A DNA stretch of 64,000 nt from Shigella phage TB004. The notes under the pieces were generated by a model that was not told the origin of the DNA, ran no database searches, and saw only the letters and a list, made by a program, of their open reading frames with translations. This document shows, one piece after another, positions 22,375 through 29,310 of this stretch. Numbering within the stretch: position 1 is the first letter of the stretch; each line of letters begins with the position of its first letter. Where the stretch lies: sequence record MW822011; one strand, written 5' to 3'. The position numbers and the translations under genes were made by a program.

Positions 22375-22378
22375 GTTG

Positions 22379-22404
22379 AGGACTCCTTCGGGAGTCCTTT
22401 TTTA
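22379..22404 (+). terminator. Rho-independent terminator (GGACTCC-ttcg-GGAGTCC plus T tract)
   Basis: 7-bp GC-rich stem, UUCG loop, then TTTTTTATTTT. Confidence 0.8.
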
Positions 22405-23578: not shown

Positions 23579-23775
23579 TGAAATTCTTTTTAGATCAAAC
23601 TGTTGAATTAAAGGGAGTTGGTATACCTGGATTAATTTCTAAGGTTCTACCTCCATTTAAATGGAGTGGTATTCAAATAAAAGAGGCTTATATTGTTTCC
23701 TGGGTAGATGGAAATGAAGACCTTCGTATGGGTGATGAATTATCTCCTATCTATGGATTAAAGGAATTAATATGA
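23578..23775 (+). CDS. Hypothetical protein (65 aa)
   Basis: Start overlaps the upstream stop. Confidence 0.5.
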   Translation: MKFFLDQTVELKGVGIPGLISKVLPPFKWSGIQIKEAYIVSWVDGNEDLRMGDELSPIYGLKELI

Positions 23776-23978
23776 ATATAATTAATAAGATTTTTGGAAT
23801 TCAGTACATTAAGGTTACATATAAAGTAACGTATAAAGGTCCGTATACCGATGAATATGAAGAGCCACAAGTTCAGTCTATTATATTAGAAAAGGACCCT
23901 AACTGGCCAGTTGAATTTCGTCTTCCTTGCTATGGTCATTGGGCTGATGTTGAAATTATAAGTATTGAAAATGTCTGA
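23772..23978 (+). CDS. Hypothetical protein (68 aa)
   Basis: Start overlaps the upstream stop. Confidence 0.5.
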   Translation: MNIINKIFGIQYIKVTYKVTYKGPYTDEYEEPQVQSIILEKDPNWPVEFRLPCYGHWADVEIISIENV

Positions 23979-24429
23979 GTTAGAGATTAGAAGCAATTTT
24001 AAATGGCCATCATGTGCATTAAGCAATTTCGCCCAATGGCCTTTTGTTATGGATGGCATTCAATTTGGAGGTCTCGAAGGATTCCTACAAGGATGTAAGG
24101 TGAAAAATGCTGAACATCAAAGACGTATATTTGGGTTGTCTGGATTGGCTGCACAGCAAGCTGGAAGGTCTTATGCAAGAGCTCAGGACCGTGGAACTCT
24201 CTTCTGGTTAGGAGTTCCATTTTCAAGATACTCTGAAGCGTGGAAAGAATTATACACAAATGCATATTTTGAAGCAGCGATCCAAAACAGGGGCTTTCGT
24301 GATGCATTACAAGCCTCGAAAGGAAAAGTTTTGAAGCACAGCATGGCTAGTGGTCTAACAAAAGATGATACAATACTAACCGAAGCTGAATTTATTGACG
24401 TGTTAAACCTATTAAGAGACTCTCTATGA
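23965..24429 (+). CDS. NADAR (YbiA-like, DUF1768) domain protein (154 aa)
   Basis: Motif LSNFAQWPFVMDGIQFGGLEGFLQGCKVKN resembles the YbiA/NADAR signature (FSNF...W...DG...E.YFQA.K). Confidence 0.6.
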   Translation: MKMSELEIRSNFKWPSCALSNFAQWPFVMDGIQFGGLEGFLQGCKVKNAEHQRRIFGLSGLAAQQAGRSYARAQDRGTLFWLGVPFSRYSEAWKELYTNAYFEAAIQNRGFRDALQASKGKVLKHSMASGLTKDDTILTEAEFIDVLNLLRDSL

Positions 24430-25289
24430 AGCCAACTATTTTGACTGATATTGATGGAGTATGTTTAAGCTGGCAATCAGGCCTTCCTTATTTTGCTCAG
24501 AAATATAATCTTCCATTAGAACATATTTTAAAAATGATCCAAGATGAGAAATTTATTTCTCCAGGTAAGCTCTTTAATTGTGATGAAGAACTTGGTGTCA
24601 AGTTAATTGAAAAATACAATCGTTCGGATTTTATTCGTTACTTGTCTCCATATAAAGATGCTCTGCGTGTAATTAACAAATTAAAAGAAGATTATAATTT
24701 TGTAGCTGTTACAGCACTGGGTGATTCTATTGACGCTCTGCTGAATCGTCAATTTAATTTGAATGCTCTTTTTCCTGGTGCCTTCTCAGAAGTACTGATG
24801 TGTGGTCATGATTCTTCAAAAGAAGAGTTGTTCAAAAAGGCAAAAGAGAAATATAACGTAATTTGTTATATTGACGATCTCGCTCACCACTGCGATCATG
24901 CGAGTGAAATATTAAATGTTCCTGTTTATTGGATGGCTCGAGGGGAGCGTGACAGTATTCCAAAAACTGCACAGCGAGTTTATACATGGAATGATGTAGA
25001 AAATAAGCTTTTTTCACCAAAGGAAAATAAAGAAAGTTTTGATAGTGAAAAAGCTATAAAAGATGTAATTGAGAAGATGGTTAAAAACGATTCTTTTCGT
25101 TGGAACACTACCTGGAGAACTCCTGGATTTAATCCGTATAACCCATATTATACACATCCATATAATCCATATTATACACACCCGTATCATATGAATCCAT
25201 TCCATACGTGGAGTTATATTAAGCCCGGTGATGCAGGGTATTTTAATAGATTTACTAGTGGTGATAATATTTTCCAAGGAGCATTCTAA
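24426..25289 (+). CDS. HAD-superfamily phosphatase-like protein (287 aa) with a Pro/Tyr-rich repeated C-terminal tail
   Basis: N-terminal HAD motif I (ILTDIDGVCL); C-terminal NPYNPYYTHPYNPYYTHPY encoded by a 24-bp tandem duplication. Confidence 0.6.
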   Translation: MKPTILTDIDGVCLSWQSGLPYFAQKYNLPLEHILKMIQDEKFISPGKLFNCDEELGVKLIEKYNRSDFIRYLSPYKDALRVINKLKEDYNFVAVTALGDSIDALLNRQFNLNALFPGAFSEVLMCGHDSSKEELFKKAKEKYNVICYIDDLAHHCDHASEILNVPVYWMARGERDSIPKTAQRVYTWNDVENKLFSPKENKESFDSEKAIKDVIEKMVKNDSFRWNTTWRTPGFNPYNPYYTHPYNPYYTHPYHMNPFHTWSYIKPGDAGYFNRFTSGDNIFQGAF

Positions 25290-25558
25290 TGTTTGTCGTT
25301 CACACTATTTATGAAAATGAAGGTAATACTACACGTGATTACGGTCACGTAAATCAATTTTTTAGATGCAATCCAGAATTCCGAGCTCAAAAAGACGAAC
25401 GAATTTTTAAAAAATGTGTAGAGCAAGGTTTCATTTACGTCAAGCATTGGATGCAAGGAAATAAAGTTAGAACTACATATCATAAGTCTTTGCCTGAGCT
25501 TAATGATGAATTGATTTATAATAGAGCTGTAAACCAAACCTTGAAGGATGAGCAATGA
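25289..25558 (+). CDS. Hypothetical protein (89 aa)
   Basis: Overlapping junctions with both neighbours. Confidence 0.5.
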   Translation: MFVVHTIYENEGNTTRDYGHVNQFFRCNPEFRAQKDERIFKKCVEQGFIYVKHWMQGNKVRTTYHKSLPELNDELIYNRAVNQTLKDEQ

Positions 25559-27018
25559 TTCTTAAAATTCTGAATGAAATAGCATCTATTGGATCAACTA
25601 AGCAGAAGCAAGCAATTCTTGAAAAGAATAAAGATAATGAATTGCTTAAACGGGTATATCGTCTGACTTATTCTCGTGGGTTACAGTATTATATCAAGAA
25701 ATGGCCTAAACCTGGTATTGCTACCCAGAGTTTTGGAATGCTGACTATTACCGATATGCTTGACTTCATTGAATTCACGTTAGCTACTCGGAAATTGACT
25801 GGAAATGCAGCAATTGAGGAATTAACTGGATATATCACTGATGGTAAAAAGGATGATGTTGAAGTTTTACGTCGAGTTATGATGCGAGACCTTGAATGCG
25901 GTGCTTCAGTATCTATTGCAAACAAAGTTTGGCCAGGTTTAATTCCTGAACAACCTCAAATGCTGGCAAGTTCTTATGATGAAAAAGGCATTAGTAAGAA
26001 TATCAAGTTTCCAGCTTTTGCACAGTTAAAAGCAGATGGAGCCCGGTGTTTTGCTGAAGTTCGAGGCGATGAATTAGATGATGTTCGTCTTTTATCACGA
26101 GCTGGTAATGAATATCTAGGATTAGATCTTCTTAAGGAAGAATTAATCAAAATGACTGCTGAAGCCCGCCAGATTCATCCAGAAGGTGTGTTAATTGATG
26201 GCGAATTGGTATACCATGAGCAAGTTGAAAAAGAGCCAGAAGGCCTAGATTTTCTTTTTGATGCTTATCCTGAAATTAGTAAAGCTAAAGAATTCGCCGA
26301 AGTAGCGGAATCTCGTACTACTTCTAATGGAATCGCCAATAAATCCTTAAAAGGAACCATTTCTGAAAAAGAAGCTCAATGCATGAAGTTTCAGGTCTGG
26401 GATTATGTCCCGTTGGTAGAAATATACGGTCTTCCGGCGTTTCGTTTAAAATATGATGTACGTTTTTCTAAACTAGAACAAATGACATCAGGATATGATA
26501 AAGTAATTTTAATTGAAAACCAGGTAGTAAATAACCTAGATGAAGCTAAGGTAATTTATAAAAAGTATATTGACCAAGGTCTTGAAGGTATTATTCTCAA
26601 AAATATCGATGGATTATGGGAAAATGCTCGTTCAAAAAATCTTTATAAATTTAAAGAAGTAATTGATGTTGATTTAAAAATTGTAGGAATTTATCCTCAC
26701 CGTAAAGACCCTACTAAAGCAGGTGGATTTATTCTTGAATCAGAGTGTGGAAAAATTAAAGTAAATGCTGGTTCAGGCTTAAAAGATAAAGCCGGTGTAA
26801 AATCACATGAACTTGACCGTACTCGCATTATGGAAAACCAAAATTATTATATTGGAAAAATTCTAGAGTGCGAATGCAACGGTTGGTTAAAATCTGATGG
26901 CCGCACTGATTACGTTAAATTATTTCTTCCAATTGCGATTCGTTTACGTGAAGATAAAACTAAAGCTAATACATTCGAGGATGTATTTGGTGATTTTCAT
27001 GAGGTAACTGGTCTATGA
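25555..27018 (+). CDS. 30: ATP-dependent DNA ligase
   Basis: 487 aa, MILKILNEIASIGSTKQKQAILEKNKDNELLKRVYRLTYS...; adenylation lysine context FAQLKADGARCF; matches T4 DNA ligase. Confidence 0.95.
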   Translation: MILKILNEIASIGSTKQKQAILEKNKDNELLKRVYRLTYSRGLQYYIKKWPKPGIATQSFGMLTITDMLDFIEFTLATRKLTGNAAIEELTGYITDGKKDDVEVLRRVMMRDLECGASVSIANKVWPGLIPEQPQMLASSYDEKGISKNIKFPAFAQLKADGARCFAEVRGDELDDVRLLSRAGNEYLGLDLLKEELIKMTAEARQIHPEGVLIDGELVYHEQVEKEPEGLDFLFDAYPEISKAKEFAEVAESRTTSNGIANKSLKGTISEKEAQCMKFQVWDYVPLVEIYGLPAFRLKYDVRFSKLEQMTSGYDKVILIENQVVNNLDEAKVIYKKYIDQGLEGIILKNIDGLWENARSKNLYKFKEVIDVDLKIVGIYPHRKDPTKAGGFILESECGKIKVNAGSGLKDKAGVKSHELDRTRIMENQNYYIGKILECECNGWLKSDGRTDYVKLFLPIAIRLREDKTKANTFEDVFGDFHEVTGL

Positions 27019-27226: not shown

Positions 27227-27261
27227 TAAATAGAATAAGAATAAACACTAGAGAGGATATG

Positions 27262-29310
27262 ATGGAACTCATTACAGAATTATTTGACGAAGATACTACT
27301 CTTCCGATTACAAACTTAAATCCAAAGAAGAAAATACCGCAAATTTTTTCAGTTCATGTTGATGACGCAATTGAACAACCAGGCTTTCGTTTATGTACCT
27401 ATACATCTGGAGGTGATACTAACCGTGATTTAAAGATGGGCGATAAAATGATGCATATTGTTCCTTTTACATTAACTGCTAAAGGTTCAATTGCTAAATT
27501 AAAAGGTCTCGGTCCAAGCCCAATTAATTACATCAATTCAGTTTTTACTGTTGCGATGCAGACGATGCGGCAGTATAAAATTGATGCCTGCATGCTTCGT
27601 ATTCTTAAGTCTAAAACTGCTGGTCAAGCTCGACAAATTCAAGTTATTGCTGATAGACTTATCCGTAGTCGTTCAGGTGGCAGATACGTCCTTCTTAAGG
27701 AACTCTGGGATTATGATAAAAAGTATGCATATATTCTTATACATCGCAAAAATGTATCACTAGAAGACATTCCAGGAGTTCCGGAAATTAGTACCGAGCT
27801 CTTTACTAAAGTTGAATCGAAAGTCGGCGATGTTTATATCAATAAAGATACTGGAGCTCAAGTAACTAAAAATGAGGCAATTGCAGCATCTATCGCACAA
27901 GAAAATGATAAACGTTCTGACCAAGCTGTTATTGTTAAAGTTAAAATTTCCCGTAGAGCAATTGCGCAAAGTCAATCATTAGAATCTTCTAGATTTGAAA
28001 CACCAATGTTTCAAAAATTTGAGGCTTCAGCAGCAGAATTAAATAAACCCGCCGACGCGCCTTTAATTTCTGATGCTAACGAATTAACTGTTATTTCTAC
28101 TTCAGGATTTGCATTAGAGAATGCTCTTAATAGTGTTACAGCTGGAATGGCATTCAGAGAAGCTTCTATAATTCCTGAAGATAAAGAATCTGACGTTAAT
28201 GCAGAAATAAAAAATAAAGCTTTAGAAAAATTACGAAAAGAATCTATTACTTCAATAAAAACTTTAGAAACTATTGCTTCTATCGTCGATGATACTTTAG
28301 AAAAATATAAAGGTGCTTGGTTTGAAAGAAATATTAACAGACATTCGCATTTAAACCAAGATGCTGCAAATGAGTTAGTACAAAATTCTTGGAATGCAAT
28401 AAAAACAAAGATTATTCGAAGAGAATTACGTGGATATGCTCTTACCGCTGGATGGTCATTACATCCTATAGTCGAAAATAAAGATTCATCTAAATACACA
28501 CCAGCGCAAAAACGCGGAATTCGTGAATATGTAGGTTCAGGATATGTAGACATGAATAATGCTCTTTTGGGATTATATAATCCAGATGAGCGTACAAGTA
28601 TTTTAACAGCACCTGAAATAGAACAAGCCATTGATAATTTAGATTCAGCCTTTAAAAATGGTGAACGATTACCAAAAGGTATTACTTTGTATCGTTCACA
28701 ACGAATGTTACCTTCAATATATGAAGCACTGGTAAAAAATCGAGTTTTTTATTTTAGAAATTTTGTATCAACATCATTATATCCAAACATTTTTGGTACT
28801 TGGATGACTGATTCAGCTGTGGGTGTTTTACCAGATGAAAAGCGTCTAAGCATTTCTGTCGATAAAAATGATGAAGGGCTTGTTAATTCTAGCGATAATT
28901 TAGTTGGAATTGGATGGGTTATTACTGGAGCTGATAAAGTCAATGTTGTTTTACCCGGTGGAAGTTTAGCACCTTCAAATGAAATGGAAGTCATTTTGCC
29001 ACGTGGATTAATGGTCAAAGTCAATAAAATAACTGATGCATCTTACAACGATGGAACAGTTAGAACTAACAACAAGCTTATTCAAGCTGAAGTTATGACC
29101 ACAGAAGAACTCACCGAATCGGTAATTTATGACGGTGACCGTTTAATGGAAACTGGTGAATTGGTTACAATGACAGGTGATATAGAAGATAGAGTTGACT
29201 TTGCATCGTTTGTTTCATCAAATGTTAAACAGAAAGCAGAATCATCTCTTGGAATTATTGCGTCTTGCATAGATATTGCAAACATGCCTTACAAGTTCGT
29301 TCAAGGATAA
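27262..29310 (+). CDS. alt: Alt, virion-packaged ADP-ribosyltransferase
   Basis: 682 codons from ATG at 27262; MELITELFDEDTTLPITNLNPKKKIPQIFSVHVDDAIEQPGFRLCTYTSGGDTN...; GAGGA SD. Confidence 0.9.
   Translation: MELITELFDEDTTLPITNLNPKKKIPQIFSVHVDDAIEQPGFRLCTYTSGGDTNRDLKMGDKMMHIVPFTLTAKGSIAKLKGLGPSPINYINSVFTVAMQTMRQYKIDACMLRILKSKTAGQARQIQVIADRLIRSRSGGRYVLLKELWDYDKKYAYILIHRKNVSLEDIPGVPEISTELFTKVESKVGDVYINKDTGAQVTKNEAIAASIAQENDKRSDQAVIVKVKISRRAIAQSQSLESSRFETPMFQKFEASAAELNKPADAPLISDANELTVISTSGFALENALNSVTAGMAFREASIIPEDKESDVNAEIKNKALEKLRKESITSIKTLETIASIVDDTLEKYKGAWFERNINRHSHLNQDAANELVQNSWNAIKTKIIRRELRGYALTAGWSLHPIVENKDSSKYTPAQKRGIREYVGSGYVDMNNALLGLYNPDERTSILTAPEIEQAIDNLDSAFKNGERLPKGITLYRSQRMLPSIYEALVKNRVFYFRNFVSTSLYPNIFGTWMTDSAVGVLPDEKRLSISVDKNDEGLVNSSDNLVGIGWVITGADKVNVVLPGGSLAPSNEMEVILPRGLMVKVNKITDASYNDGTVRTNNKLIQAEVMTTEELTESVIYDGDRLMETGELVTMTGDIEDRVDFASFVSSNVKQKAESSLGIIASCIDIANMPYKFVQG

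Follow-up and report, generated by a model that had tools for sequence, protein, structure and literature searches.

Genes 30.3 and 30.2 of the phage genome analyzed here overlap, but they very probably have separate roles. In the explanation that we favor, gene 30.3 is adfN and would encode an anti-DarT hydrolase, and gene 30.2 would encode a dispensable HAD phosphomonoesterase that lies outside the anti-DarTG1 mechanism and has the DNA ligase gene as its genomic partner. The NADAR gene is a clear case of a phage orphan antitoxin-like enzyme that erases a DNA modification imposed by a defense system. This reading of gene 30.3 is correct but has already been published for T4, so it is not new, and the sequence analyzed here (a stretch of 64,000 nucleotides, referred to as the window) adds nothing to the mechanism of AdfN.

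Genomic context of genes 30.3 and 30.2

On the basis of its sequence, the window is assigned to the genome of a Tequatrovirus (a T4-like phage), in the orientation opposite to that of the T4 map. When a 2.2-kb query around 30.3 and 30.2 was used, 653 phage records were matched with a best identity of 97%, and many Tequatrovirus genomes were found to be 96-97% identical to the window. Comparison of the local ORFs with T4 (tblastn, together with the T4 annotation) showed that the T4 order 30.6-30.5-30.4-30.3-30.2-30.1-30(ligase)-alt.1-alt is reproduced in the window. These ORFs were 93-99% identical to their T4 counterparts, the exception being the tail of 30.2 (73%). The features of the region are the following.

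23772..23978, + strand: gene 30.4, a 68-aa ORF (phrog_2042, E = 5e-33; T4 annotation)
23971..24429, + strand: gene 30.3 = adfN, 152 aa, predicted NADAR-fold DNA ADP-ribosylglycohydrolase (anti-DarT factor NADAR; PF08010, T4 gp30.3 orthology)
24426..25010, + strand: gene 30.2, catalytic core (aa 1-195), HAD phosphatase fold with a helical C1 cap
25011..25289, + strand: gene 30.2, C-terminal tail (aa 196-287), a predicted helix at 207-220 followed by a disordered Pro/Tyr/Asn-rich stretch
25132..25187, + strand: 24-nt tandem repeat within the 30.2 tail, 2.3 copies (Tandem Repeats Finder score 91, 87% matches)
25289..25558, + strand: gene 30.1 (DUF3045), between 30.2 and ligase (Pfam PF11243, E = 6e-63; T4 annotation)
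25555..27018, + strand: gene 30, ATP-dependent DNA ligase (99% identical to T4 ligase, tblastn)
27259..29310, + strand: alt, packaged ADP-ribosyltransferase modifying host RNA polymerase (97% identical to T4 Alt; T4 annotation)

An earlier note, made from the sequence alone, had described two ORFs upstream of ligase and Alt. Both ORFs are present, on the + strand, and the downstream genes are as it described. The start that it gave for the first ORF (TTG at 23965) did not hold. The real start is the ATG at 23971 (MSELEIR...), 6 nt downstream, because this is the start in the T4 annotation and it yields a 152-aa protein that aligns with T4 gp30.3 end to end without a gap.

The stop codon of 30.4 overlaps the start of adfN by 8 nt, and in the ATGA at 24426-24429 the stop codon of 30.3 overlaps the ATG of 30.2, so that 30.4, 30.3, and 30.2 are packed as one translationally coupled block. 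In a scan for promoters and terminators, sites were no commoner than in shuffled controls, and none was placed within the 30.4-30.1 block so as to separate the genes. In T-even phages, adfN and 30.2 are co-transcribed and translationally coupled.

Gene 30.3 encodes a NADAR-fold protein

The window gp30.3 and T4 gp30.3 are of equal length and are identical at 146 of 152 positions (96%), with no gaps. The protein matches the Pfam family PF08010 (Phage_30_3) over the whole profile (positions 1-138 of 138, E = 3e-68, 228.3 bits compared with a cutoff of 36), and no match was found for it in PADLOC or NCBIfam. The signature on which the earlier note had based its NADAR-like assignment, LSNFAQWPFVMDGIQFGGLEGFLQGCKV, corresponds to residues 17-44 of gp30.3 and aligns to residues 29-56 of Escherichia coli YbiA. 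Sequence similarity between the two proteins is marginal, and the link, weak but specific, covers the signature segment (E = 0.63 with phmmer and E = 0.0036 with a profile).

A model of gp30.3 was built with AlphaFold2 on an alignment of 42 homologues (pLDDT 93.3, pTM 0.88) and compared with the PDB by Foldseek. The top three matches were YbiA (2b3w, E = 1e-5), the Phytophthora PnNADAR with ADP-ribose (8bau), and the DarG1-type NADAR of Geobacter lovleyi (8bat), each with a probability of at least 0.99; beyond these three solved NADARs, no match in the PDB was obtained at E < 1. The residues E36, K43, and H123 are present in the window protein and are invariant among the 42 homologues, which reach down to 36% identity. 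H123 sits in the last strand of the model (residues 120-123), and the C-terminal helix is predicted at residues 138-151 and is intact. Thus, the PF08010 match, the NADAR fold, and the presence of E36, K43, and H123 bear out the assignment made from the signature, and the structure prediction that had been proposed as a check confirms the fold.

The window protein shares with T4 AdfN its length, E36/K43/H123, the C-terminal helix, and a position between 30.4 and 30.2, and its C-terminal 27 residues (126-152) are those of T4. The two differ by substitutions at positions 11, 47, 49, 89, 107, and 125, none of which is catalytic or invariant. In addition, the overlapping ORF 30.3' that is annotated in T4 is interrupted in the window by a stop codon.

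The DarG1/DarT1-associated NADAR antitoxins (BC4488 family) and E. coli YbiA have in common with gp30.3 the NADAR fold and the Glu/Lys catalytic pair, and the reaction of these proteins, hydrolysis of ADP-ribose from the N2 position of guanine, is the same as that of the phage type. Phage NADARs differ in having a His where the YbiA family has a Glu (Schuller et al. 2023) and DarG1 has an Asp. The phage type also lacks the N-terminal extension of DarG1, and it does not serve as an antitoxin in uninfected cells.

The length of AdfN in other phages was also considered. For sutha-like phages, a tblastn match covering residues 1-144 only had raised the possibility of a truncation of the type found in RB69. 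Translation of one such locus (L006) gave a full 152-aa protein, so the shorter coverage is an artefact of alignment trimming. The protein database also contains gp30.3 clusters of 126 aa and shorter; these are probably gene-calling variants, because 126 aa corresponds to a start at Met27.

Activity of T4 AdfN and what is expected of the window allele

The function of the T4 orthologue is described in PMC11825919, PMC11125620, and the HIDEN-SEQ preprint; that it counters DarTG1 was shown in vitro in Toxins 2024, and in vivo in Nat Commun 2025 and in the preprint. DarT1 modifies guanine with ADP-ribose at the N2 amine, a change that NADARs undo (Schuller et al. 2023). Purified T4 gp30.3 hydrolyzes guanine-ADPr in vitro (Cihlova et al. 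2024), and the purified protein, since named AdfN for anti-DarT factor NADAR (Johannesman et al. 2025, Nat Commun, PMC11825919), strips ADP-ribose from DarT1-modified DNA (PMC11825919). The same study showed that T4 becomes DarTG1-sensitive when it lacks adfN and that ectopic AdfN rescues RB69, whose own allele is frameshifted, without the last 15 residues, and inactive; rescue was impaired by the E36A and K43A substitutions and by C-terminal truncation (PMC11825919). The HIDEN-SEQ transposon screen of T4 is an independent confirmation: plain K-12 tolerated insertions in 30.3, which were lost on the DarTG1 host (log2FC -7.25). The earlier note had suggested that the NADAR gene counters DarT-type defense, and this role has been shown experimentally for an orthologue that is 96% identical.

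T4 gp30.3 is without antitoxin activity in uninfected cells (Cihlova et al. 2024), T4 AdfN does not rescue uninfected E. coli from DarT1 toxicity, and the help that it gives to non-T-even phages is weak. The picture of a stand-alone enzyme is therefore incomplete. Full activity of AdfN-T4 is limited to infection by T-even phages, and the authors who discovered it postulate an additional T-even factor (PMC11825919).

The mechanism has been shown for T4 AdfN, and its extension to the window rests on the 96% identity and on the intact catalytic and C-terminal elements. Infection would activate the host DarT1, which would ADP-ribosylate guanines of the phage DNA at their N2 amine and so block replication. 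AdfN, as a stand-alone NADAR-fold hydrolase, would then cleave the N-glycosidic link using E36, K43, and the phage-specific H123, with the predicted outcome that ADP-ribose is freed, unmodified guanine is restored, and the phage replicates in DarTG1 hosts. Because the window allele is full length, keeps all of the functional elements, and is 96% identical to that of T4, we infer that its AdfN is active and that the phage is resistant to DarTG1. An intact adfN allele predicts DarTG1 resistance, unlike the allele of RB69, and this makes the gene useful for host-range prediction.

Gene 30.2 encodes a predicted HAD phosphatase

The second ORF (24426-25289) is gene 30.2 and encodes a protein of 287 aa in which the sequence ILTDIDGVCL is HAD motif I. 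This protein matches phrog_420 (E = 7e-90), a family annotated as being of unknown function. No curated HAD model of Pfam or NCBIfam was reached by the window gp30.2, no NT5C match was obtained at E <= 1, and PADLOC gave no match. The 100 homologues of gp30.2 that were collected, nearly all from T4-like phages, are 196-347 aa long, and conservation is limited to the first ~195 residues. Across 43 aligned members, the HAD motifs could be placed at D8-x-D10 (I), T96 (II), K132 (III), and D150-D151 (IV). D8, D10, and K132 are invariant, as are the cap residues W16, S18, Y64, and S67, and T96 and D150-D151 are at least 90% conserved. In the AlphaFold2 model, the core has a Rossmannoid HAD fold (pLDDT > 90), and a helical C1 cap formed by residues 16-72 is inserted after motif I. 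Both the fold and all four motifs thus agree with the HAD motif I that the earlier note had recognized in this ORF.

The structural neighbors of gp30.2 are a mixture of nucleotidases, sugar phosphatases, and dehalogenases, so that the fold alone leaves the substrate unspecified. A DxD motif, with the second Asp at +2, points to phosphoryl transfer rather than dehalogenation, and a helical C1 cap is typical of HAD enzymes that act on small molecules and not on DNA ends. The sole sequence match of gp30.2 in the PDB was the cytosolic 5'(3')-deoxyribonucleotidase (cdN; profile E = 0.076). In this alignment, D8 and D10 pair with N12 (the structure is of a D12N variant) and D14 of cdN, and the invariant W16 pairs with F20. 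In mdN and cdN, the Phe that lies eight residues after the nucleophile stacks on the nucleotide base, and we treat this correspondence as a lead rather than a test. The most specific Pfam match among the relatives of gp30.2 was likewise NT5C (PF06941), which was weakly matched by 8 of the 43 members (best E = 1.2e-4).

The likeness to cdN and mdN (Pfam NT5C, HAD subfamily I) lies in three features: the HAD core bears a C1 cap, motif I reads DxDGV, and an aromatic residue follows the nucleophile at a distance of 8 positions. It is set against an identity of 15-21% and an extra disordered, repeat-bearing tail of ~90 residues in gp30.2. As judged from its sequence, gp30.2 resembles the 5'(3')-deoxyribonucleotidases, and this is a resemblance rather than a demonstrated membership of the family. 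Because these are the enzymes that it is most like, gp30.2 probably acts on a nucleoside monophosphate as an Mg2+-dependent phosphomonoesterase, an assignment that we make with modest confidence. A reading of gp30.2 as a thiamine pyrophosphokinase was rejected because the scores are far under the cutoffs (Pfam E = 0.18, TIGR01378 E = 0.013) and because the HAD fold and motifs contradict it.

Gene 30.2 is non-essential in T4, in which insertions were recovered at 72 of 72 sites (published Tn-seq). A literature search on gene 30.2 and gp30.2 found no functional study, and gp30.2 is a so far uncharacterized member of a known enzyme superfamily.

Linkage of gene 30.2 to the ligase gene

Gene order was compared in two sets of loci, 80 IMG/VR loci with gp30.3 relatives and 78 loci with 30.2. 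A ligase gene was present within 6 kb of 30.2 in 71 of the 78 loci. In 68 of them ligase starts no more than 1.5 kb downstream of 30.2, often after a gap of just 2 nt, and the linkage extends to distantly related T4-like phages of the Acinetobacter, Aeromonas, and Klebsiella types that are without 30.1 and 30.3.

This arrangement is what would be expected if gp30.2 were a ligase-associated phosphatase that, for example, removes a blocking 3'-phosphate or handles a nucleotide by-product, its variable tail serving as a tether to a protein of replication or repair. A weak match of gp30.2 to the polynucleotide kinase/phosphatase family phrog_415 points in the same direction. T4 PseT (polynucleotide kinase/3'-phosphatase) resembles gp30.2 in being an HAD phosphatase of a phage whose motif reads DxDG, and it is functionally paired with ligase; gp30.2 differs in having a helical cap and in lacking a kinase domain, and the match (E = 7e-4) is marginal and comes from a phage-only library. 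The predicted C1 cap (residues 16-72), typical of small-molecule HADs, argues against such a role, as does the finding that 30.2 is fully dispensable in T4 whereas ligase is essential. Moreover, a fixed gene order is common in the core regions of T4-like phages without functional coupling. We regard a ligase-associated function as a tentative possibility and on balance an unlikely one. Our preferred reading of gp30.2, as an enzyme outside the anti-DarTG1 mechanism, takes ligase to be its consistent genomic partner, a linkage that may be inherited synteny.

gp30.4 as a candidate helper of AdfN

The effects of insertions on growth in the DarTG1 host were taken from the published T4 table (HIDEN-SEQ, sheet Data S6). 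Insertions in 30.4 were depleted (log2FC -1.79, adjusted p 0.014), and those in 30.5 dropped without reaching significance (log2FC -3.0). Insertions in 30.2 were neutral (log2FC -0.12, p = 0.61, 71 sites), as were those in 30.1 and alt (log2FC -0.01 each).

If AdfN-T4 does need an additional T-even factor for its full activity, gp30.2 is unlikely to be that factor, given that insertions in its gene are neutral on the DarTG1 host. A better candidate is the 68-aa gp30.4, because its gene overlaps the start of adfN, is conserved in this upstream position in T-even phages only (a neighbor cluster of 13 loci), and shows a significant loss of insertion mutants on DarTG1. Polarity on adfN accounts for the depletion of 30.4 equally well or better and is the simplest explanation, and we consider it quite improbable that gp30.4 is the postulated factor.

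adfN and gene 30.2 are separable

The earlier note had suggested that the NADAR and HAD ORFs form a small module for processing ADP-ribose or nucleotides. In such a module, the HAD enzyme could process the freed ADP-ribose or a nucleotide derived from it, or gp30.2 could itself be the T-even factor that AdfN needs. The ATGA overlap of the two genes, the retention of their arrangement in the 13 loci of the T-even clade, and the full activity of AdfN-T4 only during T-even infection (the rescued RB69 also carries 30.2) are consistent with joint action.

Several results speak against it. The Tn-seq data set the two genes apart, with T4 30.2 mutants not depleted on the DarTG1 host on which 30.3 mutants are lost. 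In about 60 of the 80 loci with gp30.3 relatives, no 30.2 homologue was present within 6 kb, and one was found at this distance or less in about 20. In the opposite direction, gp30.3 was within 6 kb of 30.2 in 36 of the 78 loci and directly adjacent in 19. In at least 10 complete genomes, the two genes are separated by 50-60 kb (as in the locus pairs L079/L096, L068/L099, and L069/L100). When gp30.3 relatives were clustered by their immediate neighbors, the 30.4-30.3-30.2 order was confined to one T-even clade; outside this clade, the neighbors of gp30.3-type NADARs were heterogeneous, and no conserved one was found upstream or downstream. No HAD-NADAR fusion was found among 97 gp30.3 homologues.

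Based on the Tn-seq data and on co-occurrence measured in both directions, we conclude that the overlap of adfN and 30.2 reflects gene packing in T-even phages rather than a functional pairing that has been conserved. There is no support for the two-gene module, as 30.2 is neutral on DarTG1, is separable from adfN, and tracks ligase, and any joint action of the two proteins is very unlikely.

Least credible of all is an explanation in which AdfN mainly erases off-target nucleic-acid ADP-ribosylation by the phage enzymes Alt, ModA, and ModB: it would account for the nearness of alt (2.8 kb downstream of adfN here and nearby in many relatives) and fits the failure of AdfN-T4 as an antitoxin in uninfected cells, but adfN is dispensable on K-12 and essential only with DarTG1, alt mutants are neutral on DarTG1, in distant phages alt often lies on the other strand or is missing from the vicinity of gp30.3, and the known targets of Alt are proteins (T4 annotation). 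The earlier note had claimed no functional link to alt, and none was found.

The C-terminal tail of gp30.2

The earlier note had reported a Pro/Tyr-rich repeated tail in the second ORF, and the repeat was confirmed. It was identified by Tandem Repeats Finder at 25132-25187 with a period of 24 and encodes PYNPYYTH twice, and residues 249-287 are disordered in the AlphaFold2 model (pLDDT < 50). The copy number of this repeat differs from that in T4, whose gp30.2 is 10 residues shorter at this point (a 10-aa gap in the alignment).

Within Tequatrovirus, gp30.2 is 278, 279, 282, 284, or 287 aa long and ends in one of two allelic C-termini, ...GGIEYLYNRPT(C/S)GDNIFQGAF or ...GDAGYFNR(L/F)TSG(SG)DNIFQGAF. 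The tail is hypervariable in length and sequence and fast-evolving, and it is missing in many phages, being entirely absent from the gp30.2 of some Mosigvirus-like phages. A GIEY(L/W)...PT element is common to the gp30.2 of several genera and has diverged in the window.

Synteny of gene 30.2 and variation in the tail of its product

In very distant T4-like phages (IMG/VR loci L082-L154), the DNA ligase gene lies immediately 3' of the 30.2 homolog, with a gap between the two genes of as little as 2 nt, and this adjacency holds even in the absence of 30.1 and 30.3. The alt homolog in these loci is sometimes inverted relative to ligase.

25132-25289: variable part of the tail of gp30.2, the predicted HAD-fold phosphatase

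Among near-identical Tequatroviruses, the gp30.2 tail differs in repeat copy number and ends in one of two allelic versions of the C terminus, variation that gives protein lengths of 278-287 amino acids. Both alleles retain the final residues GDNIFQGAF, and a GIEY(L/W)..PT element of gp30.2 tails is found again in other genera. The tail might provide a short motif by which a partner protein docks.

The adfN reading frame and its upstream neighbor

24107-24334: 30.3', +1 frame within adfN (gene 30.3), from the T4 annotation

The T4 annotation includes 30.3' as a 75-amino acid product of internal translation in another frame, overlapping 30.3. In TB004, a stop codon interrupts this frame after 34 codons, which speaks against conservation of 30.3' as a gene.

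Among gp30.3 protein clusters P0104-P0118, P0141, and P0195, many database entries are short (83-126 amino acids) or carry pieces of other Pfam families (PF11097, PF06919, PF06019, PF26911). These entries suggest that, in some phages, the gp30.3 gene is called from a different start or contains a frameshift or recombination junction.

23772-23978: gene 30.4, small ORF directly 5' of adfN

When gp30.3-relative loci were compared, a 30.4-like ORF 5' of gp30.3 was confined to the T-even clade (13 loci). Published Tn-seq data for T4 show that insertions in 30.4 were significantly depleted on the DarTG1 host (log2FC -1.79, adjusted p 0.014), and those in 30.5 were also lower (-3.0, not significant). 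This depletion could reflect either polarity on adfN or a genuine helper role.

22378-22399 (+): strong intrinsic terminator-like hairpin (9-bp GC-rich stem, T-run)

This hairpin, located 3' of a 30.9-like ORF, is the sole good plus-strand terminator candidate predicted 5' of the 30.8-30.1 gene block.
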